Positions 1,058 through 40,861 of a stretch of 64,000 nucleotides of DNA are shown here, in pieces. The notes under the pieces are model-generated. The model searched no databases. It was not told where the DNA came from and saw only the letters and a list, made by a program, of their open reading frames with translations. Source of the DNA: Waddlia chondrophila WSU 86-1044 (lineage in GTDB: Bacteria > Chlamydiota > Chlamydiia > Chlamydiales > CAMCWV01); the NCBI GenBank assembly GCA_945882915.1, contig CAMCWV010000003.1:64785-128784 (forward strand), read 5' to 3'. Numbering within the stretch: the first letter of the stretch is position 1; each line of letters begins with the position of its first letter. The position numbers and the translations under genes are program-made.

Positions 1058-1120
1058 TTTTCGCCGACGTTATAGTCGATTAAATCTCAAATGATAGGCT
1101 CAAACAGCGCCAAAGCTCTC

Positions 1121-11297: not shown

Positions 11298-11387
11298 ATA
11301 GCCGCAAACTGGATCAAAGTCTCGCCTGAGCCGAGGGATTAAATTCGCAGGCTTTCGTGTTGTCTCAGCCTATTATTTGAGATTTAA

Positions 11388-11843
11388 TCAACTATAACTT
11401 GGCAAAAGGAGGAGCTGGAGCTCTTTAAGGATATCGGCGGTGCTGGCCAATTCTGTTGGAGATGGCGGCTTTTTAGAAGGGGGCTTGTTCTTAGCAGAAG
11501 CCCCTGCATGGGGCTTGGTCGAGCGGGGCTTAACGTTGATGTGTAATCCAGCTGGTAACAGGTGTTGACATAGGCGAAAAGCCTCTCTAACAATGCGCTT
11601 AAAGCGATTGCGCTTGATTGCCTTTCCGTAGTGGCGAGAAACAGTAATCCCAAGCTTTGCCCGAGAACCATTTCCAAAAAAAGTTTCTATAGCGATTAAA
11701 TTCCCAGCCGAGCGGCGTCCCTTAAACGAGAGTTTTTGAAAAACACCTCTTTTTAGCACGCGCGCTGACTTAGGAAACGAATATCCTGAAAGAGGCTCCT
11801 TTTGAAAGGAAGCTGCAGGTTCGCTTAGACTGTCAGTGCCCAT
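11388..11843 (-). CDS. rnpA: Ribonuclease P protein component
   Basis: 151 aa with core [27 protein letters not shown]. Has a Lys/Pro-rich C-terminal tail. Overlaps the rpmH 3' end. Confidence 0.85.
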
Positions 11844-11959
11844 CGGCCCTGTCTACGACGGCGGCTTAAAACCTTCTTTCCGTTAGTTGATTTCATGCGA
11901 TAACGGAAGCCATGTGATGTTGCACGACGACGTTTGCTTGCTTGGTATGTACGCTTCAT
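11825..11959 (-). CDS. rpmH: 50S ribosomal protein L34
   Basis: Not in the track (44 aa). My own translation is [44 protein letters not shown]. Start and stop were verified on the sequence. Confidence 0.9.
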
Positions 11960-12009
11960 AGTGAGACATCCTCTGAGAATGAGCTGTGGTTTTTGTGATA
12001 ATTCAGATA

Positions 12010-12333
12010 TATACTCCTCGTAGCTGAAAATGGGAACTTGGACGACGCCAAAGCCCCGGGGCTGAACGATCGTAAGTACCCTTTGTATTTCTAATACTAA
12101 GGCGCTTGCGATCGTTCAGCCGCGGGAGCTTTCGCGCTAGTCCAAATTCCCGTTTTCAACTAGGAGGAGTATACTCCTCGTAGCTGAAAATGGGAACTTG
12201 GACGGCGCCAAAGCCCCGGGGCTGAACGATCGTAAGTACCCTTTGTATTTCTAATACTAAGGCACTTGCGATTGTTCAGCCGCGGGAGCTTTCGCGCTAG
12301 TCCAAATTCCCGTTTTCAACTACGAGGAGTATA
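12010..12333. repeat. Head-to-tail dimer of long-form PE-A (12010-12173 and 12170-12333) sharing a TATA junction
   Basis: Two ~164-bp copies differ at a handful of positions. The junction reads GAGGAGTATACTCCTCG. Confidence 0.9.
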
Positions 12334-12842
12334 GTACCCGAGATCATCGATAATTGTAAAGGCTGACGTTAAAAGGGCCAGCAGTTCCCACTAAATATTT
12401 TTCGCGCAGATCGAGGGTGATTTTGGGCATGGAGAGAAGCATCTTCATACCGTTTTTGCCACATTGATGATGCCGGCTTTTTTGATAGATCAAGTCCAAG
12501 AAGCAGCATGTGGCCTGCCTCTCTCAGGACAGGGCGATTTTATCAAGAAAGATTTGACGCTTAGAGGGGGGGGGGCAGGGCAATCGCATGAAGAATCTTC
12601 TTGGTTATTTAAACCGCTGCCGCGGTTTTTTTTAAGCTATCAAGCCTGTGTCCGATTAAAATCGCCCTATCTTTTAGGAGTTAAAAAATAAACTTTTTGT
12701 GGGAGCTGCTGTTAAAACGGTATTAAAGAACGTTAAAACTAGAAAAATAGCCCTTAAACAGAAAAGAGCTTGAAACAAAATTCCCCGATAGGGTATGAAC
12801 AAGCTTCCTTTTTATTTAAAATACATGTAGAGGGATAGTCCC

Positions 12843-12974
12843 ATGAAAGTAAGAGCTTCTATCAAACAGATTTGCGAAGAGTGCAAGATCATTCGTCGTA
12901 TGGGTCGTATTTATGTGAGTTGCAAAAAAGAGCCCTCACACAAACAGCGCCAGAAAGGCCCTTCTCGCGATTAA
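12843..12974 (+). CDS. rpmJ: 50S ribosomal protein L36
   Basis: Not in the track (43 aa). My own translation is [43 protein letters not shown]. Confidence 0.85.
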
Positions 12975-13011
12975 TTATAAATAGTCAATAAAGTAAAAGA
13001 TAAAGAGTATT

Positions 13012-13299
13012 ATGGCTAAAACATCATCTATTCAAAAAGAAATCCACCGCGAAAAACTCGTTGCACGTACTCAAGAGAAGCGCAAATTACTAAAAGCGCA
13101 AGCCCTTGCGGGTGACGATGACGCTCGCACTGCGTTAGACAAACTTCCAAAGAACAGCTCTCCTCAGCGCCTTCGTAATCGTTGCCAATTGAGCGGCCGT
13201 GCACGTGGATTCTTGAGAAAGTTCAAGATGTCTCGTATCTGGTTCCGCGAGCTCGCTCTTATGGGCATGATCCCTGGCGTTGTAAAAGCTAGCTGGTAG
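13012..13299 (+). CDS. rpsN: 30S ribosomal protein S14
   Basis: 95 aa. Motif [43 protein letters not shown]. Confidence 0.9.
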
Positions 13300-13348
13300 A
13301 TTGCGTTCAGTAGGCAGGCCTACTGATTTCCCCACCCTTTTTAATTTC

Positions 13349-13387
13349 AATCCTCAATGGTCCATCGACCCTTGAGGATTTTTTTTG
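13349..13387 (+). terminator. Rho-independent terminator of rpmJ-rpsN
   Basis: AATCCTCAA-T-GGTC-CATC-GACC-C-TTGAGGATT followed by TTTTTTG. Confidence 0.8.
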
Positions 13388-13540
13388 CCAAAAAACCTCA
13401 ACAAACTCTGTTCTAGAGGGACATTTTAAATATCTTGCCTCTTCCTCTGTATTCTCTGTATTCCAAAAAATTTATCACTCTATTTTCATTATGACAGCCC
13501 GAGGCTGTCCCGCTTTGTTCTTTCTTATTTCTCTTTTTTT

Positions 13541-13596
13541 GTAACAGTTCACATGCACCGACAAAGGAGGGGTATGTGAACTGTTACCTTTTTTTT
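13541..13596 (+). terminator. Repeat-derived hairpin plus T-run (second terminator, or bidirectional with lpxL)
   Basis: 14-bp arms GTAACAGTTCACAT ... ATGTGAACTGTTAC followed by CTTTTTTTT. The same arms recur at 63961-64000. Confidence 0.55.
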
Positions 13597-13601
13597 AAGG
13601 G

Positions 13602-14921
13602 TTACTTGATGAGTCCGTAGAAGATGACCTGATAGACATCGGTAGTATCGATGGTGGGAAACCGTTTTTTGGCAAGCGCCCCGAGCTGCAAGAAGTTTAC
13701 CACCTCAAAAGCTCCTAATTTCAAATAGTGCTGATGGCACCCAGAAATATCTGCAAAGTCTAATACCACCTGATAGAGCCAGCTGTCTAGCAGAGCTTCT
13801 TTTGCTGTAGAATAGGTGATAATATCCCCTTCCAAGACCTTTAAGGCACCTCTGCCCTCTTGCTCGCGACTTTGTGGTACAAGGAAAGTCAAAAAACCGT
13901 ACGGGTAAAACGTCCGAAGCACATAAAGTCCCTTCATGCAGGCCTCAAAAGCCGCAAGATCCTCTGGAAGAATCACGAGAAATGCATCGTGACTAAACCG
14001 CTTGGCAACAAGCCCTTTGGGCTGCTTCCAGCGCCTGTGCTGCCAAAGCCACTGACCAAGGTTCTCTCTAATTGCTTGCTCTTGAAGAACAAGCGCCTCG
14101 TGCATTAAACGCTCGACTTCTTCTTTTGAAGGTTTTGTAAGGTCTGGCCAAATAGGATCTGAATACCCAACCAAGTAACGCCCATCAGCTTCTCTTTTAA
14201 TTGATACGACAACGATAGGACTCCCAGTTGCATAAGAAAGAAGCCCGGGAGCAGATGAGGTCCACGCCCTGACTCCAAAGAAAGGATATGAATAGGAGCT
14301 TGAAGGAAGCCCCTGATCTGCAACAAACCCAACGCTAACACCTTTTTTCAAAGCTCTTAAGCTGGCTTTAAGGGCTCCCTGCTGATCAATAATCTTTCCT
14401 CCCCACATTTCTCGAATAGAGACAATCCAGCTATAGAGCAGAGTGTTATCAATGGCCCTGCCTACTGCAATCACAGGAGATCTGTGTGAACTATCAATAA
14501 ATGAGACCTCCCAATTAGCAAGATGAGAGCCCAAAAAGATAATCCCCTTACGGTCCCCTTTCCCCTCTTTTTGAAGCGGCACTGCAGACCTTTCGTTCTT
14601 AGCATGAAGAAGTGCATCTATTTTCGTGTAGCTACGGGCAAGGCGTCCATATTCTAAACAAGTGATTGTGAGGCTCTGAAACGCCTGCTTGGCAATCGCC
14701 TTCATTTCCGTTTCTGAAAGGCCAAGCGCTGGCTGTACCAAAGCAAGATTATTCATCGTGAGCTTGCGATATTTTTTTGAAAGGTAGTAGCCAATTAAAC
14801 CAAGACCGCGTCCAAGGCGATGCAACCAGCGCGGAGGAAGCAGCGACAGCAAGAAACTGATACTACAAGCGCCGTAGAGTACCAGACGATGCTGCACATG
14901 GGTGAAAAATGGTTTTGTCAT
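13602..14921 (-). CDS. lpxL: Lipid A biosynthesis (Kdo)2-lipid IVA acyltransferase, LpxL/HtrB family, with C-terminal extension
   Basis: 439 aa with an N-terminal TM anchor. Acyltransferase core: GSHLANWE, FVADQG. About 140 extra C-terminal residues. Confidence 0.8.
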   Translation of the reverse strand: MTKPFFTHVQHRLVLYGACSISFLLSLLPPRWLHRLGRGLGLIGYYLSKKYRKLTMNNLALVQPALGLSETEMKAIAKQAFQSLTITCLEYGRLARSYTKIDALLHAKNERSAVPLQKEGKGDRKGIIFLGSHLANWEVSFIDSSHRSPVIAVGRAIDNTLLYSWIVSIREMWGGKIIDQQGALKASLRALKKGVSVGFVADQGLPSSSYSYPFFGVRAWTSSAPGLLSYATGSPIVVVSIKREADGRYLVGYSDPIWPDLTKPSKEEVERLMHEALVLQEQAIRENLGQWLWQHRRWKQPKGLVAKRFSHDAFLVILPEDLAAFEACMKGLYVLRTFYPYGFLTFLVPQSREQEGRGALKVLEGDIITYSTAKEALLDSWLYQVVLDFADISGCHQHYLKLGAFEVVNFLQLGALAKKRFPTIDTTDVYQVIFYGLIK

Positions 14922-14982
14922 ACGTAAAACTAAGGCACTTACGATCGTTCAGCCGTGGGAGCTTTCGAGCTGTCTGAGCCGA

Positions 14983-16146
14983 TCATTTGAGATTTAATCG
15001 ACTATACTTTGCAACTTTGCAGGTATCGGCGACGATTATACCGATCTGCTTAGAGAAATCCAAGTGCGCAACACTCTGCCGAATCATTTGTGAGGAAAAG
15101 GGACTTTTAGGGTGCCGCATTGCAGCTCCAAGAGCCGCCGCGATCGAATCTGCCCGGAAAAGATCTTGAATCACCACCCCCGTTGCAGGACTCAGCACCT
15201 CAGCGCCCCCATTTAATGAAGAAGAGACAACAAACAACCCCATCGCCAGAGCTTCTACCGTCACGTTTGCAAAAGGGTCGTACGTCGAAGGGATAACAAG
15301 GGCATCGGCCGTTTGATAGAACTGCCGAATATCAGAACGTTCACCAAAAAATGTGACCTGCTTGGCAAGGCCTAATCCGCTAGCAAGTTCTTTAAAGCTA
15401 GAAGAGTTCTTGTCTTTACCAACAACAGACAAGTGAAAGTTTTTATCGCGAAGACACGTGAGCCCACGCAAAAGAAGATCAAGCCCCTTTCGCTTAAAGC
15501 CATTACCTACAAACAAAAATTGATAGACACTCCTATCAAGGCAAAGCACCTGACTCAAAGAATCACGCACAGAAGGCCAAGCGTCAAAATCACCTCTCAT
15601 CTGCTCCCACTCAACACCATTGTGGACCACTTTCACCTTGTCAGGATCAACATTGTAGTGATTAAGAACCTCTTGTCTTACCATCTCTGAATTGGTAAAC
15701 AGCCTTTTTAGCCCTGGGTTTTCGTAGGCGGCCTTTTCAAGTTTCAGAATGTAATAATGCAGCGGATTTAAAGAAAAAGAGGCACATTTTAGCCAAGAGT
15801 CGGTACGCCGGCGGTGGTTGAGATAAGCCGCGTGCACCCCATTACCTGCACGGTAGTGAGTCTGGTAGGAGTTGCGGTCCATACCAAAGACAACCTCTAC
15901 AGGATTGTCCTGTAGCCATCTCTGACACCGCCTATCAAACTTAAAAAGATTGTAGAGACTAAAAGAGGAGGTCTCTCCCATTGAAACCCACTCAATTCCT
16001 GGTAGGAGATCTTTTTTGGGGGAACCTGTCGTTAAAGCAGTCACGAAGCAACCAGCCGCAACAAATGCTTTTACGAGCTCTCTGGAGTATTTTTCTGCTC
16101 CACCAAGAGACCCCAAACGACTTTTAAGGAAGGCAAGTTTAGTCAT
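14983..16146 (-). CDS. GT4 glycosyltransferase, WaaG/RfaG-like (LPS core glucosyltransferase I-like)
   Basis: 387 aa. By eye it aligns along its length with E. coli WaaG as I recall it (VGNGFKRKGLDLL, VVGKDK..FKELASGLGL, EALAMGL). Lies between lpxL and cdaR. Confidence 0.75.
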   Translation of the reverse strand: MTKLAFLKSRLGSLGGAEKYSRELVKAFVAAGCFVTALTTGSPKKDLLPGIEWVSMGETSSFSLYNLFKFDRRCQRWLQDNPVEVVFGMDRNSYQTHYRAGNGVHAAYLNHRRRTDSWLKCASFSLNPLHYYILKLEKAAYENPGLKRLFTNSEMVRQEVLNHYNVDPDKVKVVHNGVEWEQMRGDFDAWPSVRDSLSQVLCLDRSVYQFLFVGNGFKRKGLDLLLRGLTCLRDKNFHLSVVGKDKNSSSFKELASGLGLAKQVTFFGERSDIRQFYQTADALVIPSTYDPFANVTVEALAMGLFVVSSSLNGGAEVLSPATGVVIQDLFRADSIAAALGAAMRHPKSPFSSQMIRQSVAHLDFSKQIGIIVADTCKVAKYSRLNLK

Positions 16147-16148
16147 CC

Positions 16149-17402
16149 TTAATGAGTGGGAGCGTGTTGATTGAGGATGATGTTGTTGCCTTGAAGGGAA
16201 ATTGTTAGCTCTAATGGCTTTCCATCCTTTGTATAAAGGGCAAACTCTCTTAAATAATAACGGAACCGCTCACGCAAGAACTCTTCTTTGCTATTGCCTG
16301 ACATCTCCCGAAGATCAGCCTCACTTGTGCTTTGAAGAAGTGACTCGACATACTGGTCTTCAAGAGCTTGCGGGTTAATGAACTGAACGCTCCACTGCAG
16401 CTCCTTAGAATCTTCTACAGGAGTGAGCGCAACAACCAGTTGCAATTGATTGCGCAGCACTTGTAAAAACGCCCGGCTAACATCTCTGACATACAAGGGA
16501 ATCGTGAGCAGATACATCCCCTCCACCTGCTCTACAACTCCAGTAGCCTTTAAACTATAAGCTGTAGGATTAAGCGCGCTGCTATATTCGAAAGGGAAAA
16601 ATGTGCTAATCGGAATTTTCTGATCTAAAGCAATCGATGCTGTCCTTAAGAAGTCGATCCGCAAGTCTTTGGCTCGAGGGTCATTAATAGCGACAGACTC
16701 CTGGGGACCAAAAGGCATGACAATTTGCTTCCATGAATCCGGAACAACAAAAGAAACCTCGACTCCACCATCTTCTGAATTGTGCCCTGTAATACTATCG
16801 AGCATATCCTTGTTAATATCTGAAAGGTTAAAGACCCACTCGACGCCGCGATCTGTGAGGTATTTTACCTGCGCAGCAGGACCTGTAACTGTTTGCATCA
16901 GCTGCGTCGGCCAAACGCCGATGAACTGATAATCTGCAGGAGAGGCCCCATGTGGATTAGCAATATAAACAGGAACCTGCTCTGAGGCAAGAGCGCTAAG
17001 AGTCAACGTAACAGGACTTGCCGTCACAGCAAAGACCTGATGGGTTAGATCAATTGCTTTATTGATGGTCACTAGATTTCGCTTATTAATGTCAGCTGTC
17101 CAGTTATCCCCTTTCCCCTGAGCGTTAAAGACAACTTCAATATCCGTTGGTTTAAGCTCTTCAAGAATGGTATTGTTTCCAGTAATCGCTACGGTAATTC
17201 TCTTTTCCAGTAACCCATCAGGACGTATGCCAAGAAGAGTCTTCCCTTTTGGAATATTCACAACGCGAACAGCTACATCTGGAATAGTGCGAGTGGCCAC
17301 AATTGTATTGTTTACAAGGAACCAAACAATTACGGCGCCAACAATTGCCAGGCACTTTCGTTGCCAATCGTTCAAAAAAATGGAGCGTAACCAAGTTCTC
17401 AT
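16149..17402 (-). CDS. cdaR: YbbR-domain protein (CdaR, CdaA regulator)
   Basis: 417 aa with an N-terminal TM anchor and a repeated beta-rich YbbR-like region. Lies immediately downstream of cdaA. Confidence 0.75.
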   Translation of the reverse strand: MRTWLRSIFLNDWQRKCLAIVGAVIVWFLVNNTIVATRTIPDVAVRVVNIPKGKTLLGIRPDGLLEKRITVAITGNNTILEELKPTDIEVVFNAQGKGDNWTADINKRNLVTINKAIDLTHQVFAVTASPVTLTLSALASEQVPVYIANPHGASPADYQFIGVWPTQLMQTVTGPAAQVKYLTDRGVEWVFNLSDINKDMLDSITGHNSEDGGVEVSFVVPDSWKQIVMPFGPQESVAINDPRAKDLRIDFLRTASIALDQKIPISTFFPFEYSSALNPTAYSLKATGVVEQVEGMYLLTIPLYVRDVSRAFLQVLRNQLQLVVALTPVEDSKELQWSVQFINPQALEDQYVESLLQSTSEADLREMSGNSKEEFLRERFRYYLREFALYTKDGKPLELTISLQGNNIILNQHAPTH

Positions 17403-17437
17403 AAAACTATCTCATCTGAGGCTGAAACAACAAAAAA

Positions 17438-18211: not shown

Positions 18212-18250
18212 CTAGAACCTCTATGGGGACGAACACCCGGAACCTATATA

Positions 18251-18335
18251 TATACTCCTCGTAGTTGAAAACGGGGGCTTTGGCGCCGTCCAAGTTCCCA
18301 TTTTCAGCTACGAGGAGTATATAGTCCTCTTAGCT
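18251..18335. repeat. PE-A short form plus an extra truncated TIR
   Basis: TATACTCCTCGTAGTTGAAAACGGGGG...CCCATTTTCAGCTACGAGGAGTATA followed by GTCCTCTTAGCTG. Overlaps the folP 3' end. Confidence 0.85.
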
Positions 18336-19237
18336 GTTTTTATGTAGGAAATAAAATCTATTAGCTCCCTATGCTCCTTAATGTCGTGTACTCTGATGAT
18401 ATCGACCCCTGCCATTAAGGCGAGGGTATTTACAGCAAGCGTTGCTGACAATGGGCCTGAAAGTGACTTGACGATATTGTTTTTTGCAACATTGCCTGCC
18501 ACTTCATTCAATATCTTAGCTGTAAAAGACTTACGCGAAGCACCTAAGAGCACAGGAAAACCTAAAGACTTCAACGTACGTAGATTGTGCAAAATTTCGA
18601 TATTATGAGCAACGGTTTTCCCAAAACCAATCCCCGGATCTAAAATAATGCGACTCGGGCTCACACCCTTCTCTACAAGCATTTTTACCTGCCCTTCCAG
18701 CCAGTGCATAATTGCATAGACAACCCCCTTTTCATAATGAGGTGCGCTCTGCATACTCTGAGGATCCCCTTGCATGTGCATGATGCAAAGCTCTGCCAAA
18801 GAAGTAGCGGCGACGTCTTGCATCTCAGGATCGCGAAAACCGCTAACATCGTTGAGGAGCGTAGCTCCAGCAGCAAGCGCCTGAGAAGCAACGCGGGCCT
18901 TTCTTGTGTCAATAGAAATAGGAACAACCACTCCCCTCTGCCGAAGAGCCTGAATAACTGGGATAACACGGCGCAGCTCGTCTTCTTCTGAAACAGCTGG
19001 AGCCCCTGGTCTAGTAGACTCACCGCCAATGTCGATAATGTCAGCGCCTGCTGCCACCATCTGCTCTGCCCTTAAGACAGCCCGTTCAACTTCAGCATAG
19101 CGCCCGCCATCAAAGAAGGAATCTGGCGTTACATTAAGAATGCCCATAAGGCGGTGAGATTGAGTAGACATCTGGACTCCGAGTTTCGCCTGACCAATGG
19201 ATACAGGCAACACATTCGATTGCGTTTTAGAGAACAT
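18308..19237 (-). CDS. folP: Dihydropteroate synthase
   Basis: 309 aa. Motifs: GILNVTPDSFFDGG, DIIDIGGESTRPG, ILDPGIGFGK. The true start may be an internal Met. The last codons are repeat-derived. Confidence 0.9.
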   Translation of the reverse strand: MFSKTQSNVLPVSIGQAKLGVQMSTQSHRLMGILNVTPDSFFDGGRYAEVERAVLRAEQMVAAGADIIDIGGESTRPGAPAVSEEDELRRVIPVIQALRQRGVVVPISIDTRKARVASQALAAGATLLNDVSGFRDPEMQDVAATSLAELCIMHMQGDPQSMQSAPHYEKGVVYAIMHWLEGQVKMLVEKGVSPSRIILDPGIGFGKTVAHNIEILHNLRTLKSLGFPVLLGASRKSFTAKILNEVAGNVAKNNIVKSLSGPLSATLAVNTLALMAGVDIIRVHDIKEHRELIDFISYIKTAKRTIYSS

Positions 19238-19293
19238 GCGTTAGCACATGCTCTTTGAGGTTCAGCAAGAATTAAGCAGGCGCCTCTAATTAG

Positions 19294-28248: not shown

Positions 28249-28271
28249 CCTGGTTATCCTGTTTTTCTTTG

Positions 28272-29675: not shown

Positions 29676-29770
29676 CCTTGTACCTCTTATTTTTGGTAAC
29701 GCACTCTAGCAAGAAGCTGATTTTTAAAAAACAAAGTTTACGAACACGCCTTTCAGCTCAAAGACGCATA

Positions 29771-30035
29771 GAAAAAAGAGAAGAGAGAGAAATACAGGAA
29801 GAGGACAGGCAGGATAGCCTTCGGCTGCAGGATAAAAAACAGGATAATGGATTTTTTGAAACACAGAGAACACAGAGAAAATGCAGAGAGAGATATAACT
29901 AAAAAAACAGAAACTAGCCCCCCTCTTTCTCTGTGTTCTCTGTGTTTCAAAAATAAAAATTATTTCAGCCTGTTTTTATCCTGCCTATCCTGTTCCTTTA
30001 TTTCTTTCTCTCTTTTTTCTCTGTGGCTCTGTGGT
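29771..30035. repeat. PE-B (CACAGAG / CAGGATA type) large imperfect palindrome between hemE and hemN
   Basis: The left arm ...GGATAGCCTTCGGCTGCAGGATAAAAAACAGGATA..TTTGAAACACAGAGAACACAGAGAAA is mirrored by TTTCTCTGTGTTCTCTGTGTTTCAAA..CCTGTTTTTATCCTGCCTATCCTG. Confidence 0.8.
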
Positions 30036-30053
30036 AAAAATCCCCACTTGTGA

Positions 30054-31106: not shown

Positions 31107-31135
31107 TATTGTTCACCATAAAGAGTTAAAGATTT

Positions 31136-31388
31136 TCACCACAGAGTCACAGAGAAAATAGAGAGGAATACAGGAACAGGATAGCCTTCGGCTGCAGGAT
31201 AAAAAACAGGATATTGAACTTTTTGAAACACAGAGAACACAGAGGAAATAGAGAAAGAGAGTGGTTCTAGTTCCGATTTTCAGCTACGAGGAGTATATTT
31301 TTCTCTGCGTTCTCTGTGTTTCAAAAACAAAAACTATTTTATCCTGTTTTTATCCTGGAGCCAAAGACTATCCTGCCCATCCTGTTCC
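31136..31388. repeat. PE-B large palindrome between the tkt stop and the hemE start
   Basis: Same arms as 29771-30035, with a PE-A fragment in the centre. Confidence 0.8.
31266..31297. repeat. PE-A right-arm fragment nested in the centre of a PE-B palindrome
   Basis: TCTAGTTCCGATTTTCAGCTACGAGGAGTATA. Confidence 0.75.
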
Positions 31389-31513
31389 TATACTCCTCTT
31401 AGCTGAAAACGGGAATTTGGACGGCGCCAAAGCCCCGGGGCTGAACGACCGCAAGTGCCCTTTGTATTTCTAATACTAAGGGCACTTACGATCGCTCAGC
31501 CGCCGGAGCTTTT
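31389..31513. repeat. PE-A long form, right arm truncated; runs into the tkt stop codon
   Basis: Left TIR, GC module and inner TGAACGACCGCAAGTGCCC...GGGCACTTACGATCGCTCA hairpin are present. The element ends in GCCGCCGGAGCTTTTG. Confidence 0.85.
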
Positions 31514-33511
31514 GCTGAGGAGGCGATCGATGATGGAGTCGATATTGAAACCAAACTCTTGAGCAAGCGCTCCTGCAGGAGCCGAAGCCCCAAAGCTCTG
31601 CATGCAAATCGCAATGCCATCTAACCCGATGTATTTGTGCCAGCCAAGCTCAACGCCCGCTTCAATGCAAACGCGCTGTCCAAGATTACCGCCGACAACG
31701 CTCTTGCGATAGTCTGCATCTTGCGCTTCAAATAGCTCCCAGCAAGGCATTGAAACAACACGTACTGCCTTTCCAAACACCCTTTTAAGCTTCTCGGCAA
31801 CATCCATCGCTAAGGTCAACTCGGATCCAGTAGCGAAAAGAGTGAAGTCTGGGGTGGAGGATTCGCTCTTTACAATATAAGCACCGCGCCCAACCCCTTT
31901 TTCAAAAGGAACTCTAGTTACAGGAAGCTCTGGAAGGGCCTGCCTTGAAAGAATAAGCGCTGTGGGGCCAGAATAACGAAGCGCCGCAATCCAGGCCATT
32001 TTAACTTCATTATTATCTGCAGGACGAATCACCTGAAGGTTAGGAATCGCACGCAAAGAAGCTATATGCTCTACAGGTTGGTGCGTAGGACCATCTTCTC
32101 CTAAAAGGATAGAATCGTGTGTAAATAGGTAGATCACCTGCACTTTAGAAAGTGCTGCAAGCCTAATAGCGTTGCGCATGTAATCAGAAAAAGTCAGAAA
32201 TGTTCCAATATAGGGAATGATCATCTGCGTTTGAGCAAGACCTGCTGCCATTGCTGCCATTCCAAATTCTCTGACGCCGTACTTAATATTTCTTCCTTTG
32301 AAGTTCTTAGCGGCTACCACTCCAAACTTATTGTGAGGCTGCATCATCGTCATATCTGAACAAGAAAGATCGGCAGAGCCGCCATATATCTGAGGAAGCA
32401 TTCCTCCCAACATGTTTAATACTTCGTTAGAGGCTGTTCTTCCCGCTAGCGCTTGCTTCATAGGGATCTGCTCAAGTTTAGCCTCGAGATCTACTGGCAG
32501 CAATTTAGTTTGCATGACCACAAAGTCCCGGCTGAGCTCAGGGTTTACTGCTTTCCAATCATCAAATCTCTTTTTCCACACCTCTTCTTGAGCGGCGTCA
32601 GCCGCTCTCTTCTTTTCAAAAAACGTGTAAACAGCATGGGGAACGTAAAAGTCCTCTTCAGAAAGTCCCAGACTTTGCTTTGATTTTAAGAGCTCTTCTG
32701 GCCCTAGCGGTGAGCCATGCGCCTTAGATGAGCCCGCTTTATTTGGAGAGCCTTTGCCAATAATTGTTCGCATCTCGATAAAAGCTGGCCGCTCCTGGTG
32801 TTTGCGGAGCTTATTAAATAACGAGTCCATCCCTTCCCAATCATATCCATCAAGCTCGTAGACTTCCCAGCCGTAGGACTTATAACGGGCTTTAGTGTCT
32901 TCTGAGCACGACTCAGAAAGGGGGCCGTCTAATGACACCTTATTAGCATCATGAACAAGAATCAAATTGTTGAGGTTTAGATGACCTGCAAGTGAAGAGA
33001 CTTCTGAAGAGATCCCTTCCATGATACACCCGTCACCTGCCAAACAAACGACTTTAGAGGTAAACAAGGCGTGCTTTTCTGTATTAAATTTAGCCGCAAG
33101 AAGCTTTAGCCCGAGCGCTTGCCCTGCAGCATTCCCAACCCCCTGTCCTAGAGGACCTGTCGTCGCCTCTACGCCTTCAGTATGGTGCAATTCTGGGTGA
33201 CCAGGTGTGCGGGAGTGGAGCTTGCGAAAGTTCTTTATTTCGTCGATTGAAAGATCAAAGCCTGAGAGGTGTAAAGCCGAATAGAGCAGCATGCACCCAT
33301 GGCCAGCTGAAAGAATAAAGCGATCGCGGTTCAGCCACTGGGAATCTTTAGGATTGTGGCGCAAAAAAGATCCGTACAAATAAGCGGCAAATTCTGCGCA
33401 GCCCATTGGCATGCCAGGATGGCCCGAGTTAGCTTTCTGTACAGCGTCGATGGAAAGGCCCCTGATGGCTCCTGCAATTTTTTCTAAACTCGTTTTTAGC
33501 TCTGGTGTCAT
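31496..33511 (-). CDS. tkt: Transketolase
   Basis: Trimmed to the ATG at 33511 (MTPELKTSLEKIAGAIRGLSIDAVQKANSGHPGMPMG). Motifs GHGCMLLY and GDGCIMEG. The upstream 29 codons of the track ORF are not conserved-looking. Confidence 0.95.
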   Translation of the reverse strand: MTPELKTSLEKIAGAIRGLSIDAVQKANSGHPGMPMGCAEFAAYLYGSFLRHNPKDSQWLNRDRFILSAGHGCMLLYSALHLSGFDLSIDEIKNFRKLHSRTPGHPELHHTEGVEATTGPLGQGVGNAAGQALGLKLLAAKFNTEKHALFTSKVVCLAGDGCIMEGISSEVSSLAGHLNLNNLILVHDANKVSLDGPLSESCSEDTKARYKSYGWEVYELDGYDWEGMDSLFNKLRKHQERPAFIEMRTIIGKGSPNKAGSSKAHGSPLGPEELLKSKQSLGLSEEDFYVPHAVYTFFEKKRAADAAQEEVWKKRFDDWKAVNPELSRDFVVMQTKLLPVDLEAKLEQIPMKQALAGRTASNEVLNMLGGMLPQIYGGSADLSCSDMTMMQPHNKFGVVAAKNFKGRNIKYGVREFGMAAMAAGLAQTQMIIPYIGTFLTFSDYMRNAIRLAALSKVQVIYLFTHDSILLGEDGPTHQPVEHIASLRAIPNLQVIRPADNNEVKMAWIAALRYSGPTALILSRQALPELPVTRVPFEKGVGRGAYIVKSESSTPDFTLFATGSELTLAMDVAEKLKRVFGKAVRVVSMPCWELFEAQDADYRKSVVGGNLGQRVCIEAGVELGWHKYIGLDGIAICMQSFGASAPAGALAQEFGFNIDSIIDRLLSKSSGG

Positions 33512-33655
33512 TAGATTCCGCACTCTATAAAAGGTTATACTCTTTTCAAAAACTTTAACGCTATCCCTCCAAATCTCACAAGAGAAAACCCTATACAAGA
33601 GAAAATCCTATAATTTAGCCTCTGTGGTGGGAAAAGGGTTCTATCTGATAGGCTC

Positions 33656-33737
33656 TATACTCCTCGTAGCTGAAAATGGGAACTTGGACGGCGCCAAAGC
33701 CCCGTCCAAGTTCCCATTTTCAGCTACGAGGAGTATA
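33656..33737. repeat. PE-A short form
   Basis: Near-perfect palindrome TATACTCCTCGTAGCTGAAAATGGGAACTTGGACGGCGCCAAAGCCCCGTCCAAGTTCCCATTTTCAGCTACGAGGAGTATA between the tkt and alaS starts. Confidence 0.9.
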
Positions 33738-33769
33738 TTTACTTTTTGTTCAACCCCCTTAATTGTTTC

Positions 33770-36412
33770 ATGTTAACACAAACTATTCGCCGCAAGTTTT
33801 TAGAATACTTTAAGAAACAGGGACACGCCGTTGTCGCCTCATCATCTGTTGTTCCCCATGATGACCCGACGCTGCTCTTTAACAACGCCGGCATGAATCA
33901 GTTCAAAGACCTCTTTCTAGGAAAGAGCCTCCGCGACTACAAGCGTGCAACCACCTCTCAAAAATGTATCCGTGCAGGCGGCAAACACAACGACCTAGAG
34001 AACGTCGGGCACACTTCTCGCCATACGACCTTCTTTGAAATGCTCGGCAACTTCTCTTTTGGAGACTACTTTAAAAAAGATGCCATCCGCTTTGCATGGG
34101 AAGTCTCTACTCTGGTGTTCGAGCTCGACTCCGAAAAAATATGGGTTACCGTCTTCGAAAAGGACGACGAAGCTGCTAAACTTTGGGAAGCGCACATCTC
34201 AACTGCACGCATCGTTAGATTTGGAGAGAAAGAAAACTTCTGGGCGATGGGCGATACTGGTCCTTGCGGCCCTTGCTCCGAGCTCCTTTATGACAGAGGC
34301 CCTCAATATGGAACAGCGACAACTCCTCTGGAAGACACCGATGGAGAGCGCTTTTTAGAGTTTTGGAACCTCGTATTCATGCAATACAACCGTCAGCCCT
34401 CGGGAGAGCTTCTTCCCCTTCCAAAGCCCTCAATTGACACAGGCGCTGGGCTCGAAAGAATCCTTTCTCTGAAGATGCACGTCCCGACAGTCTTTCAAAC
34501 AGACGTCTTCAGGAGCCTTATTGACCAGGTAGAGCAAATCTCTGGCGTTCAATACGACCCTAAAAACAGAACTCTAGCTCCCGCTTTTAATGTGATTGCC
34601 GACCACATCCGCACACTCTCGTTTGCCATTGCAGATGGAGCGCAGCCAAGCAACGTCGACAGAGGCTATGTTCTACGAAAAATCTTGCGCAGAGCTGTAC
34701 GGTACGGAAGAAGCCTCGGCATGGAAGAGCCTTTCCTTGCGAAAGTCTTGCCACGCCTCGTTGAAATCATGGGGACTGACTATCCAGAGCTTAAAAAAGC
34801 AGAAAAGCGAATCGCCGAAATCTTAACAAACGAAGAAGAAAGCTTTATTCAGACCCTTCGCAGAGGTGGGAACCTGCTTAATACAATCATTAGCAGAGCG
34901 CAGCAGCATCAACACCGCATTACAGGCGACGAGTCCTTTAAGCTTAAAGACACTTACGGCTTTCCAATTGACGAGACGCTCTTGCTTGCTAAAGACGCAG
35001 GACTTACCGTCGACATCGAACGGTACAAAACGCTTGAAAACGAAGCAAGAGAGCGCTCACGTGCGGCCCACAAGAGCGTTCAGCAAATTGCCTCTCAAAT
35101 GCTCTACGAAGACCTTTTGAAGCACAGCGGCGCTACAACAATGCTCTGCTACACACAAAAAGAGGCAGGCACTCCAGCAAACGCTACCATCACAGCGATT
35201 GTCGTCAATGGAGAGTTTGTCCAAAAGATGACAGAAGGGGAAGAAGGGATGGTCATCCTCAACCAAACACCTTTTTATCCCGAGATGGGCGGTCAGGTTG
35301 GTGATATGGGGGTCCTCACCAATGGGACTAATGCTTTTGATGTTTACGACTGCAACGCCCCTTTTACAGGGATCATTACCCACCTCGGGAAGCTCACCCA
35401 CGGAGAGCTAAATGTAGGAGCGCCGATCACAGCGACTATCGATACGCATCGGCGTCAAAGAATTGCAAATAACCACACAGCAACTCACCTTCTTCATTGG
35501 GCGCTCCATGAGGTTCTCGGAGAGCACGTCCGCCAGGCAGGGTCTGTCGTAGAACCAGAGCGTTTGCGCTTTGACTTCAGCCACCACAAAGGATTGACAC
35601 CTCAAGAAATTAAGCGCGTTGAAGACCTCGTCAACACAAAAGTCCGTGAAAACCAATTTGTCTCAGCCTATGAGCTGAAGTACGAAGATGTTCAAAAGCG
35701 CAAAGACATTAAACAGTTCTTTGGCGAAAAATATGGAAACACCGTCCGGGTCATTGACATTGACTACTGCAAAGAGCTTTGCGGGGGCACTCACACAAAA
35801 CAAGTCGGCACCATTGGCCTCTTCCGGATTGCTAAAGAAGGGAGCGTCTCTGCAGGGATGCGCCGCATCGAAGCTGTGACTGGCATTGAAGCCGAAGAAA
35901 TGGCTAGAGCAAGCGACCAGATCATTCAAAGCTTGCAAGAGCTTCTTAAAGCACAACGCCCCGACATTGGAGAAAAAATCACCAAGCTTGTTGAAGAGAA
36001 CAAGCAGCTAGAACAAGAGCTCAAAAAGGCCAAAAAAGCTGGAATGGGAGATGTGTTAACCTCTCTTCTAACAAACGTCCTTCAAATCAAAGGCATTGCT
36101 GTTCTGACTACAAAAGTAGCGGCTGACGCAGAGGAGCTCCAAGCTCTTGCTGATGGGCTCATGGAAAAAATGAAGTCCGGTGTTTTGGTCCTTGCAGCCA
36201 TTGCAGACGAGAAAAAATGCCAAGTGCTCGTAAGAGTTAGCCCAGACGTTGTTGTAAAAGGGATTAAGGCAAATGAGATCATCAAAGCAATTGCTCCGCT
36301 AATTGAAGGTGGTGGCGGCGGCAAGGCTGACTCTGCACAAGCTGGAGGCAAAGCCCCTCAACGACTGGAAGAGGCTTTCACCAAAGTACAGCAGCATGTT
36401 GCCAGCATCTAA
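33770..36412 (+). CDS. alaS: Alanine--tRNA ligase
   Basis: Trimmed to the ATG at 33770 ([19 protein letters not shown]). Motifs: [10 protein letters not shown], the HTATHLLH editing motif, and the C-terminal [14 protein letters not shown]. Confidence 0.95.
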
Positions 36413-36448
36413 AACGCCTTAAACACCCCCGGAGCAAGAATAAATACA

Positions 36449-36497
36449 TTCAACGCAAAGATGCAAAGAATAATATTTTTTGCGTCTTTGCGTTGAA
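36449..36497 (+). repeat. Hairpin built from the TTCAACGCAAAGATGCA motif, 37 nt after the alaS stop
   Basis: TTCAACGCAAAGATGCA ... TGCGTCTTTGCGTTGAA (17-bp arms, 1 mismatch). Confidence 0.7.
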
Positions 36498-36559
36498 TAA
36501 TTCCTTTTCTCATCCCTCTTATACCTCTGTGGTGAAATACTATAAAAAATTGATAAATT

Positions 36560-39500
36560 ATGAAACAGCCGGACATCCTAACTAGCGAGAAGCTCCAAGC
36601 GTTTCAAGCCGACCTCAAGCAAGGCAAATCTATCCTCATTGAAGGGCTTTGGGACACTCCCAAAGCAATCATCGCCTCTCTTGCCCAAAGAGCTACGCAA
36701 AAGCACATCCTGATTGTTACCGGAGGTGCCAGAGAAAGCCGACTATACGACGACTTCCCCTTCCTCCACGAAGGATCTGTTGTCGAGTTCCCTGCATGGG
36801 AGACGCTCCCCTCTGAACTTATCGCCCCTAGCCCTGATATCGTCGGCATTCGCTACCAAGCGCTCCACAAAATCATCACAGCCACCTCTCCGCTGATCAT
36901 CTTGTGCCCTTTGCAGGCGTGCCTTCAAAAGACAGCCCCTCCAAAGATGCTTGCATCTCTTTACCTTCCCATTCGGGTCGGGGAAAAGATCTCCTTCGAC
37001 AAGCTCCCTTCCAAGCTCACAGCCATGGGTTATGAGCGGTGCGCCGTTGCTGCCGATAAAGGAGAGTTTGCCGTTCGTGGCGGAATCATTGACATCTTCC
37101 CCGTCTCTGAAGCAGATCCCGTCCGCATCGAATTTTGGGATGATGATGTCGAGTCGATCCGTTTTTACGACCCTGTAGGGCAAAAATCAATGCGCAAGGC
37201 GGAGTCAATCACCATCACTCCGGCGCAAGAGCTCGAGCTCATCAACAAACAAGGCTCAGAAAAAGGGTCGCTTGCTACATTATGTGACTATCTAGGAAAC
37301 AATACTCTTGTTTTACTTGACGACCTCCTAGCTCTTGAAGATCGCTACATCTCTCTCCAGTCGATACCAGGGGCTATTTCTAGATCTTTTGTAAGCTTCC
37401 AAGACTTTCTTAAAGAGATAGCTCCCCTGCAAAAGATCTTCCTCTCACAATCTTCTGTCGAATCTCTTAGCGAAATTCGCCATGTCGACAAAGAGACCAT
37501 TGCATTTGAGATGTTCACCCATGTGCTCAAAGCAAAGCGTTGGCAGCACCCTTTCTTCCGCGTAACCGACTATGTACTCACCGACGAGCTGATCTCTGAA
37601 GAGGTCTCTGGAGAGACCATCTTACAAGGGCTTTCTCAATTTGAAAAGAGCCCGATTAAGCTCCGCTTTCTCTCTTCAACGGCTATTGAAGAAAAGCGTC
37701 TAAGGGATCAGCTTGCAAGCAATGGCGTTCCCCTGCCGGCAAACACCGAATTTGTTTCAGGCTACCTCTCAAGCGGCTTTGTCCTGCCAGACATCCCCCT
37801 TCTTGTCATTCCGCAGCCTGAGCTAACCCACAGACACCGGCTGCGCAGAGAAAAGATGCGGGGCACAGTCCACACACCTCCCTCTGTTCATTACGAGCTG
37901 ACCCCGGGCGATCTTGTCGTTCACTTCAATAATGGGATTGGGAAGTACCTCGGGATCGAAAACCAATTAAATGTGCATGGGATCCAATCGGAATACCTCG
38001 TTATTGAATACGCTGAGAACGGAAAGCTTTTTGTTCCACTAACGCAGTCCCATCTTGTCAGCAAATACATTGGCTCACACGACGAAACACCAAGACTGCA
38101 CACCATTGGAAACGCCCGGTGGAAACAGACCAAAGCGCGCACAGAAAAAGCGATTGCAGGATATGCTAAAGACCTTCTTAAGATGTACGCGGAAAGGGAT
38201 ATTCATGGCGGGTATATCTTTGACTCCGACAGCGAAATGCTCCAAAACTTTGAAGAGGACTTCCCCTACAGCGAAACGGAAGACCAACTCCAAGCTATCT
38301 CCTCAATTAAACAAGACATGTGCTCAAACAATGCCATGGATAGGCTTATCTGTGGAGATGTCGGCTACGGAAAGACAGAAGTGGCCATGCGCGCTGCATT
38401 CAAAGCTGTGGTTGATGGGCCCAAACAAGTAGCGGTCCTCGTACCTACAACAGTGCTTGCCATGCAGCACTACGAAACCTTTGTAGAAAGGATGAGCAAT
38501 TTTCCAGTACGCATTGGCGTCCTCTCTCGCTTTCGGACATCAAAAGAGATCAAAGAAACGCTTGAAGGAGTTGCAAACGGCTCCGTTGACATTCTGATTG
38601 GGACGCACCGGATTATTAGCGACGATGTGATCTTCCAGAATTTAGGGCTTATCATCATCGATGAAGAGCAGCGGTTTGGTGTACGTGCCAAGGAACACCT
38701 CAAAACCAGAAAAATCGGAGTCGACTGCCTGACGCTCTCGGCAACGCCTATTCCTCGGACGCTTTATATGTCGCTTATTGGCGCGCGCGACATGTCAACA
38801 ATCAGCACTCCTCCGCAGGACAGACTTCCTATTAAAACAGTCCTTTGCGAATCAAATGAGCAGGTCATTCAAAACGCTCTGCTGCGAGAGCTGTCTCGCG
38901 ATGGACAAGCTTATGTGATCCACAACAGAGTCGATTCAATCTTTGATGTCGCCTCGCGCATAAAAAAAGCCATTCCCCAAGCACGTGTTGTCGTTGGGCA
39001 TGGGCAGATGAGCTCTGATGAAATAGACTCTGTTTTCCACGCTTTTAAAAGTGGCTCTGCAAATATTCTTGTTGCGACGACGATTGTAGAAAACGGCATC
39101 GACATCCCAAATGCTAACACCATCATCATTGATAGAGCTGACCAGTTTGGCATGGCTGACCTCTACCAGCTTCGAGGACGCGTCGGCAGATGGAACCGAA
39201 GAGCTTATGCCTACTTTCTGACACCTGCCAACAAATCGCTTCCTGAGCTCACACAAAAAAGACTTGCGGCTCTTGCTCAAACAGGAGGTTACGGCGGAGG
39301 GATGAAAGTCGCCATGCGCGACTTGGAAATTCGGGGCGCTGGGGATATTTTAGGAACTGAGCAATCGGGACATGTCTCTTCAATAGGCTTCCATCTCTAC
39401 TGCAAGCTGCTTAGAAGAACTATCGAGACCCTGCAAGGCAAAACGCCCTACACCATCACTGAAACAAGAATCGACTTCCCTCAAGAAGCGCGCATTCCAG

Positions 39501-39838
39501 AAACTTATGTCAACGAAACAAGCTTGCGGATGGAGCTCTATCAGAGGCTTGGAGAGGCGCTTTCATTTGAGGATGTCGATGGCATCTTAGAAGAGATGAA
39601 GGACCGCTTTGGAAAGCCTCCGCTGCCCATTATGTGGCTCTACCACTTAACAAGGCTGCGCGTCTTCGCCTCGCAAAACCACTTCACGCTCCTAAAGCTA
39701 GACAACATCTCTCTTACTGCAGAGCAAAAAGCAGGCGAGCAAAGCATCATTAAGCGGGTCATTGTCCCCACAAAAGCCGTCCCTGCAGAGCTCGAAAAGC
39801 AGACCATCAAAGCCCTTAAAAAAGCATTCGACCTATAA
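36560..39838 (+). CDS. mfd: Transcription-repair coupling factor
   Basis: 1092 aa. Motifs: CGDVGYGKTEVA, DEEQRFGV, QLRGRVGR. Confidence 0.95.
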   Translation: MKQPDILTSEKLQAFQADLKQGKSILIEGLWDTPKAIIASLAQRATQKHILIVTGGARESRLYDDFPFLHEGSVVEFPAWETLPSELIAPSPDIVGIRYQALHKIITATSPLIILCPLQACLQKTAPPKMLASLYLPIRVGEKISFDKLPSKLTAMGYERCAVAADKGEFAVRGGIIDIFPVSEADPVRIEFWDDDVESIRFYDPVGQKSMRKAESITITPAQELELINKQGSEKGSLATLCDYLGNNTLVLLDDLLALEDRYISLQSIPGAISRSFVSFQDFLKEIAPLQKIFLSQSSVESLSEIRHVDKETIAFEMFTHVLKAKRWQHPFFRVTDYVLTDELISEEVSGETILQGLSQFEKSPIKLRFLSSTAIEEKRLRDQLASNGVPLPANTEFVSGYLSSGFVLPDIPLLVIPQPELTHRHRLRREKMRGTVHTPPSVHYELTPGDLVVHFNNGIGKYLGIENQLNVHGIQSEYLVIEYAENGKLFVPLTQSHLVSKYIGSHDETPRLHTIGNARWKQTKARTEKAIAGYAKDLLKMYAERDIHGGYIFDSDSEMLQNFEEDFPYSETEDQLQAISSIKQDMCSNNAMDRLICGDVGYGKTEVAMRAAFKAVVDGPKQVAVLVPTTVLAMQHYETFVERMSNFPVRIGVLSRFRTSKEIKETLEGVANGSVDILIGTHRIISDDVIFQNLGLIIIDEEQRFGVRAKEHLKTRKIGVDCLTLSATPIPRTLYMSLIGARDMSTISTPPQDRLPIKTVLCESNEQVIQNALLRELSRDGQAYVIHNRVDSIFDVASRIKKAIPQARVVVGHGQMSSDEIDSVFHAFKSGSANILVATTIVENGIDIPNANTIIIDRADQFGMADLYQLRGRVGRWNRRAYAYFLTPANKSLPELTQKRLAALAQTGGYGGGMKVAMRDLEIRGAGDILGTEQSGHVSSIGFHLYCKLLRRTIETLQGKTPYTITETRIDFPQEARIPETYVNETSLRMELYQRLGEALSFEDVDGILEEMKDRFGKPPLPIMWLYHLTRLRVFASQNHFTLLKLDNISLTAEQKAGEQSIIKRVIVPTKAVPAELEKQTIKALKKAFDL

Positions 39839-39850
39839 ATGCTTTGCACC

Positions 39851-39997
39851 TATACTCCGCTTAGCTGAAAACGGGAAAAATCATCCTAAACAAGCGCTTG
39901 CCCTTTCTAGAAGGTAACCCTTTAATTGCTACGGGCTTCTTCTCTTTTTCTCTTTTGTGCGCCGTCCAAATTCCCATTTTCAGCTAAGAGGAGTATA
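39851..39997. repeat. PE-A with foreign central cargo (deleted version of the 56100 cargo, inverted)
   Basis: TIRs are TATACTCCGCTTAGCTGAAAACGGGAA and TTCCCATTTTCAGCTAAGAGGAGTATA. The centre matches the reverse complement of parts of 56140-56320. Confidence 0.8.
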
Positions 39998-40009
39998 TGT
40001 CCGATTAAA

Positions 40010-40861
40010 TCAGCCTGGAGTTGTAACAGCTTCGTGCTCAAATTCTTGCGCAGCTTCCGGTTTGGTGGGGCTACCGCGGAAGGCACCCTTGCTGTGCTTT
40101 TCCTGAAGCCCGCGAAGATGCTGGAGAATCCTAATACCAGCATCTACGTGAGCATCCATATACGTCGCAAAGATCTGCTCTGAACTTGCCTTTGTCTTCG
40201 CCCCTTCACGGAAGAGCGGTAAATCTGAAATAAGGAGCAAAGCTCCAACAGGAAGCTTGTACCGGTAACTTGCCGTAAACACCGTTGCACATTCCATTTC
40301 AACCGCTTGTGCATGCGTCCGCTTCAGCTCTTCTTTGAACCTGTCGTTAAACTCCCAAAAGCGGATGTTAGTCGTATAGGTGATCCCAATGTGGTAATTA
40401 ATATGCTCTTGATCGAGAATGTTTGTTACCGCTTTTTGCACTAAAAAGTTTGCCATAGCAGGAACTTCAGGGGGCAAATAAAAATCAGAGGTCCCCTCTT
40501 TTCGGATCCCAGCAACAGGCAAGAAGTACTCGCCTACTGAATAATGCTTACGAAGCCCCCCACACATCCCGAGAAGAAGAGCCGCTTTAAATGGCGTCCG
40601 GGCGCAAAGATCTATCACAAAAGCTGCCGCTGGCGAACCAATCTTAAAATCCAAAATACTGATCCCAACAGCTGGAGCATGCGCTGCCGTAAACATCGAT
40701 CCTGTGGTCACAGGAACCCCATATTTTTCAGCAAAATAGATGACGTATTTTGGAAAGTTAGTCAGTAGTAAGTAGGGCTGAAAGTCTTCTACCTTGGAGC
40801 CGGAGTACCTGTGCAAGGCATCTTTAGCCACTTTTAATTCGCTGTATAGTTCGTTATCCAT
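40010..40861 (-). CDS. amn: AMP nucleosidase-like protein (PNP_UDP_1 catalytic domain only)
   Basis: 283 aa. YLLLTNFPKYVIYFAEKYG resembles E. coli Amn VLTNFQRYVDEF. The nucleoside phosphorylase core is GMCGGL..VGEY. The last ~10 codons lie in repeat-like DNA. Confidence 0.75.
   Translation of the reverse strand: MDNELYSELKVAKDALHRYSGSKVEDFQPYLLLTNFPKYVIYFAEKYGVPVTTGSMFTAAHAPAVGISILDFKIGSPAAAFVIDLCARTPFKAALLLGMCGGLRKHYSVGEYFLPVAGIRKEGTSDFYLPPEVPAMANFLVQKAVTNILDQEHINYHIGITYTTNIRFWEFNDRFKEELKRTHAQAVEMECATVFTASYRYKLPVGALLLISDLPLFREGAKTKASSEQIFATYMDAHVDAGIRILQHLRGLQEKHSKGAFRGSPTKPEAAQEFEHEAVTTPG

Follow-up and report, generated by a model that had tools for sequence, protein, structure and literature searches.

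Five genes in a 64,000-nt stretch of a genome assigned to Waddlia chondrophila WSU 86-1044 (positions 64,785 to 128,784 of contig CAMCWV010000003.1, assembly GCA_945882915.1; hereafter the window) were found to end inside repeat DNA. The evidence supports the conclusion that the stop codon and the last 2-29 codons of folP, tkt, a higA-like gene, a glycosyltransferase (GT) gene and rnpA are encoded by members of two repeat families, PE-A and PE-B, and are not ancestral coding sequence. An original prediction, made by inspection of the DNA, had proposed that repeats supply the stops and C-terminal tails of at least six genes. This was borne out for these five and failed for the sixth, amn. The identities of all six genes were confirmed by Pfam (folP, tkt, a higA-like helix-turn-helix gene, a GT4 glycosyltransferase, rnpA, and an AMP-nucleosidase-like phosphorylase, amn).

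The repeats themselves are genuine. The 21-nt PE-A terminus, TATACTCCTCNTAGYTGAAAA, matched the window 28 times against 0.03 matches expected by chance, and the PE-B terminus, TATAGTCGATTAAATCTCAAAT, matched four times against none expected (1071-1092, 11375-11396, 14985-15006 and 23506-23527), so that the non-coding recurrences predicted for the latter motif at 1071-1100, 11367-11396 and 23498-23527 were all recovered. PE-A resembles a transposable element of the miniature inverted-repeat type (MITE): it is small (<~300 bp), has no coding capacity, with every frame broken by stops or shorter than 55 codons, and is present in many copies. It is palindromic along its whole length of 70-275 nt, and the terminus lies in inverted orientation at both ends as a terminal inverted repeat (TIR) of at least 21 nt, MITE TIRs being ~15-30 bp. 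About 18 PE-A loci were found in the window, with sizes, pieces included, of 36-275 nt. Complete copies have TATA at both ends and T/A-rich flanks, with no further direct repeat. In RNA folding, full-length PE-A gave a single hairpin of -115.9 kcal/mol (z -19), and the whole-length hairpins of the elements ranged from z -8.6 to -19. PE-B and PE-A's left half are collinear, and an internal module is common to both elements; no inverted partner end was found for any of the four PE-B copies, all of which are one-ended. A search of Rfam found no family for any element and no match in the window. Element matches were scored by nhmmer with a PE-A model of 164 positions. All repeats combined take up 2,170 nt (3.4%) of the window and overlap coding sequence (CDS) by only 212 nt, all of it at gene ends.

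The folP gene (dihydropteroate synthase; 18308-19237, reverse strand) encodes 309 residues, the Pterin_bind domain ending at residue 284. A 71-nt PE-A that folds as a perfect hairpin (18251-18321; -43.9 kcal/mol, z -8.6) reaches 14 nt into the CDS, whose closing codons, ATA TAC TCC TCG TAG, are the terminus of the element, read as (I)YSS and the TAG stop. The codons before these, T-A-K-R-T-I (ACA GCT AAG AGG ACT ATA), are a solo right-TIR remnant, CAGCTAAGAGGACTATA (18320-18336, reverse strand), which matches the opposite TIR at 16 of 17 positions. This solo terminus adjoins the complete 71-nt element through a shared TA, and a 19-nt match links it to the TIR at 52433-52451. The proposal that the tail AKRTIYSS-stop is PE-A TIR sequence was thus correct, with the 71-nt element giving (I)YSS and TAG and the remnant giving TAKRT(I).

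A folP allele 97% identical to that of the window (P0002, on contig L003) is without the 71-nt element and ends ...YIKTAPEEYTVDTV rather than ...YIKTAKRTIYSS. The divergence of the two sequences starts exactly at the repeat-like DNA and they rejoin 5 nt past the element; a more diverged version of the solo TIR remnant is kept in L003. The exact FolP protein of the window is found also on contigs of an uncultured metagenome-assembled genome (MAG; GCA_947446165.1) and in several ENA metagenome assemblies. Its nearest named relatives belong to the Parachlamydiaceae and other Chlamydiota (~55-57% identity), and the FolP relatives at 55-57% identity end 0-8 residues past the last conserved block. 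A simple reconstruction of folP before insertion gives a frame with no nearby stop, indicating a compound history at this locus.

At tkt (transketolase; 31496-33511, reverse strand; called in public assemblies as a 671-aa form starting MTPELK), a truncated PE-A (31389-31515; model positions 1-126 of 164, nhmmer E 3e-39) spans the last six codons and the TGA, encoding (S)KSSGG. The prediction that the tail SKSSGG-stop comes from a truncated element therefore stands. The inner palindrome of this copy is intact and its gene-side outer arm is gone. The predicted RNA structure (-77.7 kcal/mol, z -10.2) has the tail codons paired to the arm facing them in the inner palindrome, and so shows them to be part of the element. 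Solved transketolase structures align to ...DRLLS(K), and one ends exactly there. Since the outer arm has been lost, simple insertion is not sufficient at tkt and a later deletion is needed.

The two PE-B cases share a terminus and a reading frame. The GT4-family (WaaG-like) glycosyltransferase gene (14983-16146, reverse strand) ends TAT AGT CGA TTA AAT CTC AAA TGA, or YSRLNLK-stop, which is the PE-B terminus. As had been suggested, this tail thus comes from a repeat motif, one present in four copies in the window. The copy at GT consists of the PE-B terminus and a PE-A-type internal module (14929-15006, reverse strand) and occupies the whole 61-nt spacer up to the start of a lipid A acyltransferase gene. 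The 11 GT orthologues end 4-11 residues earlier, and YSRLNLK occurs in none of them. The rnpA gene (RNase P protein; 11388-11843, reverse strand) ends TAT AGT TGA, the first 9 nt of a PE-B copy (11339-11396, reverse strand). A C-to-T change relative to the other three PE-B copies, from CGA to TGA, makes the rnpA stop five codons earlier. The predicted position of this stop within the motif is right, if trivially so, because only Y-S-TGA is involved. RnpA homology ends at residue 108, and the other 43 residues are lineage-specific, the last two of them repeat-encoded. This C-terminal region (11391-11520) is proline/lysine-rich, has no homology to solved RNase P proteins, and in one strain variant contains a 4-residue insertion, AKPS.

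The higA-like antitoxin open reading frame (ORF; 125 aa, 22611-22988, reverse strand) was correctly described as reading through a half PE-A. The half element (22642-22698; E 1.8e-15) encodes residues 97-116, the frame leaving it through the TIR; flanking DNA contributes the last nine codons. Solved HigA/XRE proteins are homologous only as far as residue 89. The exact 125-aa ORF is uncalled in public collections. Next to it lies an N-terminally truncated higB-like toxin remnant of 58 aa (22999-23175, reverse strand; HigB profile positions 35-79 of 91). As the half element sits in this decaying higBA module, a later deletion is needed at higA too. The locus is surrounded by other repeats. Two 99-nt direct repeats (22288-22386 and 23916-24014), 98% identical and 1,628 nt apart, flank the decayed module and a PE-B copy, and inverted pairs (8173-8243/23312-23382 and 8356-8417/24012-24073) tie the region to 8134-8417.

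The rejected case, amn, had been included because its last ~10 codons resembled non-coding DNA. Its stop (40010-40012) lies 13 nt outside the PE-A at 39851-39997. The similarity of the gene end (40000-40036) to 1289-1325 is 29 of 37 positions (E ~0.02), involves two copies only, and did not emerge again when the final 90 nt of each of the 45 genes were scanned systematically. The amn tail is ~10-20 residues longer than in most orthologues, among which length is variable. Strain variants of the 283-aa protein have two of their 2-4 differences in the last 15 residues (E to G and H to Y; 40013-40060), which suggests that the tail is under relaxed constraint, though not repeat-derived.

Comparison with orthologues, the check that had been called for, gave the expected outcome: FolP, GT and transketolase orthologues are without the repeat-encoded residues, and homology of both transketolase and HigA stops shortly before the part that the repeat encodes. 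Among strains at least ~99% identical in protein, the tails of tkt, GT, rnpA and amn do not vary, which means that these fusions did not arise very recently; clusters of such close strains do not test ancestry. PE-A is polymorphic for presence or absence at two sites, as expected of a mobile MITE. One is the folP side described above, and the other lies upstream of mfd, where a ~99.6%-identical strain (L005) has a 275-nt PE-A copy 16 nt before the mfd start that is absent from the window.

The elements are packed closely between genes. The reference copies are a full-length tandem pair sharing TATA (12010-12173 and 12170-12334; 164-165 nt), and other full-length copies lie in an intergenic spacer (41179-41342), 10 nt from the yajC stop and 6 nt from the pcm start in the spacer that separates those genes (51822-51985), and between tgt (stop 3 nt away) and yajC (52435-52598). 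Short forms of 70-97 nt are found at 5205-5274, 5430-5499, 9456-9552 (97 nt, with the stop of a DTW-domain gene 1 nt outside), 18251-18321 and 33656-33737. There are also a 275-nt variant with a different core (56100-56374), a 147-nt variant with another core (39851-39997) between the convergent mfd and amn, overlapping neither and 12-13 nt from both stops, and truncated or solo pieces at 2210-2245, 22642-22698, 31269-31297 and 31389-31515. Non-coding PE-B copies occur at 1071-1186 (forward strand) and 23436-23527 (reverse strand). In the non-overlapping cases the distances from element to stop are 1, 3, 7, 10, 12 and 12 nt. Distances to starts are 5-18 nt for pcm, the acyltransferase gene, alaS and a SIS gene, and 1 nt for uvrC outside the window, so that the spacers are essentially filled by elements.

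The number of gene ends affected was compared with random placement of ~20 repeat loci, where insertion was allowed in the 8,735 nt of spacer free of repeats and in the final ten codons of each of 45 genes. Five gene-end clips were seen where ~2.7 per 20 loci are expected (binomial P 0.08-0.12). Thus the repeat identity of the tails is far beyond chance, which cannot be said of how often stops are captured. A further 16 kb beyond the window contributed four loci, each of them intergenic. Rickettsia palindromic elements (RPEs) end up in coding sequence as in-frame insertions within ORFs that continue on the far side. Among ~24 loci examined here, none was an in-frame insertion with the frame resuming past the element, and all overlaps are at gene ends; the label 'RPE-like' originally given to the process must therefore be dropped. 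The related suggestion that elements insert at or just inside 3' ends fares better in one part than in the other, for stops have indeed been captured from repeats, and as a single mechanism it falls short because tkt and higA need later deletion. Nor did the idea of a steady source of C-terminal novelty hold up, the frequency being about that of dense insertion into short spacers and the tails being identical in ~99% strains.

We favour, with a probability of roughly 0.8, the explanation that MITE-like PE-A and PE-B elements colonised the spacers and that the gene-end tails are a by-product. Non-autonomous, palindromic PE-A, together with the related PE-B terminus, would have spread into nearly every intergenic spacer of this housekeeping region in an environmental chlamydia. 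The TATA ends and TA-rich sites suggest that TA or TATA is the target. A target of the TA type is consistent with the junctions at folP (GGAC-TA-TA-TA-CTCC) and within the tandem pair (GGAG-TATA-CTCC); any duplication of TA or TATA is inseparable from the TATA terminus, and the flanks at folP (L003) and mfd (L005) have diverged. Insertions inside genes would be lost and, as the spacers are short, the surviving copies would abut stop codons (often at 1-13 nt) and start codons. Where a copy landed in the last codons, or where a later deletion or point mutation joined a gene to a copy, translation would enter the element. A frame entering PE-A meets xYSS-stop or YTPRS-stop within 4-5 codons in two of three frames, the third staying open for 12-28 codons, and one entering PE-B meets a stop in all three frames within 0-7 codons (an immediate TAG, IVD-stop or YSRLNLK-stop). 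Because stops are carried in the termini, a gene reading into an element usually ends within a few codons. In this way folP, tkt, GT and rnpA would acquire short, probably neutral tails, and the decaying higA a longer read-through.

Several points weigh against this explanation. Domain searches with the ORFs of the window brought up no transposase, and no parent insertion sequence with matching ends, which would share TATACTCCTC... or TATAGTCGATTAAAT..., was found there. As scans of other genomes and metagenomes turned up no copy of the element, its history is untraceable. PE-B, every copy of which is one-ended, may be an immobile relic. The filled and empty folP alleles are not a clean insertion pair, as their flanks differ too, and another contig (L004) has a run of Ns inside the folP-side element. 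Flanks differ also at the mfd site, so that there is no clean filled/empty pair, and allele recombination or metagenome assembly artefacts at the hairpins could contribute to both polymorphisms. Transposition itself is something we infer, as we do the TA target and the neutrality of the tails, and translation of the repeat-encoded tails is predicted from the DNA.

The best-surviving alternative is that the elements are selected intercistronic or 3'-end RNA modules that terminate transcripts, stabilise mRNA or offer an RNase III site, the overlap with stops being functional and not neutral. Very stable hairpins lying exactly at gene ends, with the stop codons of tkt and folP within the stem, fit this reading, and published MITEs can alter mRNA stability, as stated in the background text of one report (PMC3733652). 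The exit side of PE-A, GAGGAGTATA, with its Shine-Dalgarno-like GAGGAG, also has the starts of uvrC, pcm and alaS 1-8 nt beyond it. However, the exit side is at ribosome-binding distance in only 3 of ~11 cases, no T run follows the hairpins, copies occur in divergent spacers too and vary in length from 36 to 275 nt, and they come and go between near-identical strains. We consider selection for such a role unlikely.

The exit side invites two observations on translation starts. The GAGGAGTATA motif is followed by a start at 6 nt for pcm (51815-51822), at 8 nt for alaS, which begins with TTG (33737-33746), and at 1 nt for uvrC (L023, 6279-6281), so PE-A may supply ribosome-binding sites besides stops. 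The longest yajC ORF (178 aa) begins inside the PE-A at 52435-52598 (52413-52532). A plausible start is the ATG at 52415 (MLKKLTCGLV...), 19 nt past the element, and ORF-based annotation would therefore add ~39 repeat-encoded N-terminal residues.

A bolder and slightly less probable reading is that PE-A and PE-B form a TA-targeting family akin to the orphan Correia elements of Neisseria, sharing with them a common transposase type, preferring TAA/TAG stops and acting as an intercistronic cassette. If it were true, the cassette, with stops at the entry, a hairpin body and GAGGAG at the exit, would systematically rewrite gene ends and translation starts in a reduced genome. The PE-B terminus, TATAGTCGATTAAATCTCAAAT, and the Correia terminus, TATAGTGGATTAAATTTAAAT (PMC5039591), agree at 19 of 22 positions in an alignment that begins at the extreme end of each. 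This match was equalled by 2 of 20,000 shuffles, a significance that is overstated because the comparison was made after the fact. Like the Correia elements (CREE/NEMIS), PE-B is an orphan, MITE-like repeat with TA-type ends that lies next to genes. Unlike them (a 26-bp inverted repeat at both ends enclosing 50-150 bp), it is one-ended, the similarity stops after 22 nt, and the host belongs to another phylum.

That stop capture might come from target choice, through preferential insertion into the TA of TAA or TAG stops, is very improbable. The leading TA does occupy codon positions 1-2 in both PE-B cases (GT, AAG TAT AGT CGA...; rnpA, AGT TAT AGT TGA), many copies lie 1-13 nt from stops, and all copies have TATA ends. 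Yet these are two cases only, whose shared frame has a chance of ~1 in 9, and, with the end of the element defined in the same way, the folP junction has a different frame; moreover, the majority of copies are not in stops, and overlaps are no more numerous than expected at random. Finally, the notion that the tails are ancestral coding sequence, with the repeats derived from gene ends or similar by chance, is scarcely credible: the amn similarity is weak enough for chance, rnpA involves only 9 nt and orthologue C-termini vary in length anyway, but for all five genes it is already contradicted, because the tail DNA matches 4 to 28 non-coding copies (E 1e-8 to 1e-39), the tkt tail forms one arm of a palindrome and is complementary to the other, the 97% strain without the element has another folP tail, and orthologues lack these residues.

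The capture of gene ends by small mobile repeats has precedents. In Coxiella burnetii, QMITE1 and QMITE2 extend 1-50 bp into the 3' ends of functional genes, namely ubiB, pntAA, mutT, nagZ, kdgK, ogt, recN and ruvB (Wachter et al. 2018, PMC5896051). In the same work a strain-specific EnhC has a C-terminal extension and stop from or beside a QMITE, and the problem of a hairpin at the stop is discussed (PMC5896051). The parallel is of MITEs overlapping 3' gene ends in an obligate intracellular bacterium; the differences are another sequence family, other termini and another host phylum, and PE-A is denser (28 termini per 64 kb) with whole-length palindromes. In enterobacteria, RU-1 and RU-2 (ERIC/IRU-type) are fused to the 3' end of a conserved enzyme gene, with loss of the normal stop and uniformly shorter orthologues (Delihas 2007, PMC2759123). 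As with RU-1, residues encoded by PE elements are added beyond the conserved domain and the native stop is gone, whereas the RU elements have long open frames (13-35 residues) and PE termini carry stops, giving tails of mostly 2-10 residues. RPEs, as far as a background text describes them (PMC3733652), are palindromic repeats inside annotated CDS of an intracellular bacterium. Their defining in-frame internal insertion was not seen for PE-A or PE-B, a distinction of insertion mode. REP/REPIN elements are imperfect palindromes of 20-40 bp that have a conserved GTAG or CGTC head and go with a RAYT gene. A relation to them, prompted by the GTAG that occupies positions 11-14 in the terminus of PE-A (replaced by TTAG in roughly one copy in three), was rejected, since the elements are whole-length palindromes of 70-275 nt and no Y1/RAYT domain was found in the window. 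In a literature search the only paper to link Chlamydiales with MITEs was an unrelated survey, and none described such elements in this order. The PE-A family is thus new as far as we can tell, and the 3'-overlap effect is already documented.

The search for relatives elsewhere gave nothing. The PE-A terminus had 0 loci in a collection of genome contigs, with a degenerate pattern and then with an exact 27-mer, a collection that contains neither this MAG nor any carrier of the element; metagenome contigs gave 0 loci for a PE-A 21-mer and 0 for a PE-B 22-mer. Concatenated PE-A-encoded peptides matched no protein at E <= 0.001, a level that short peptides cannot reach. No match to the tkt region was found in a plasmid collection, and no tRNA that might serve as an integration site was found in the window. 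The other ORFs tested are housekeeping genes (pyk, cydAB, rpsN, hemN, hemE, alaS, mfd, efp, tgt, yajC, pcm and cdaA), and the chlamydial histone-like Hc1 is also encoded. The region 24001-26000, where a SOUL haem-binding gene lies and an NmrA/DUF2867 gene begins, has a G+C content of 0.37 against ~0.46 elsewhere and may have been horizontally acquired.

Two further repeat families were noted. A third palindromic family (TTTTGAAACACAGAGAACACAGAGA ... TCTCTGTGTTCTCTGTGTTTCAAAA) is found at 8226-8289, 23258-23330, 29830-29983, 31197-31357, 44841-44953 and 47160-47217, and at 6011-6039 of L005. Its copy upstream of htpG lies within a 143-nt segment of the window that is replaced by 27 nt in a ~99.6% strain, and the predicted HtpG start shifts with this segment (663 aa against 655 aa). 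Another short family with the core AACGCAAAGAYGCAAAGAA occurs at 36437-36492, 43005-43060 and 56962-57017; it forms a small palindrome upstream of mfd, where strain L005 has its PE-A copy instead.

Independent assemblies of near-identical strains switch neighbour genes at or in PE-A (L022 against L023 at 6142; L015 at 1659, corresponding to window position 12170; L014 at ~1988, corresponding to 12503), through either recombination at the repeats or misassembly. As independent metagenome assemblies diverge at the elements, these mark likely points of recombination or misassembly in MAGs of the lineage.

The general understanding of how repeats affect genes is unchanged by these findings, the effect being known from Coxiella and the enterobacteria. 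Public entries carry the repeat-encoded tails verbatim, among them the 671-aa Tkt, 387-aa GT, 309-aa FolP and 151-aa RnpA of NCBI/ENA-derived collections, and alignments and domain boundaries should allow for such tails. For the organism, the analysis reveals an uncultured member of the Chlamydiota with a very dense small mobile repeat, one that differs between strains 97-99.6% identical.

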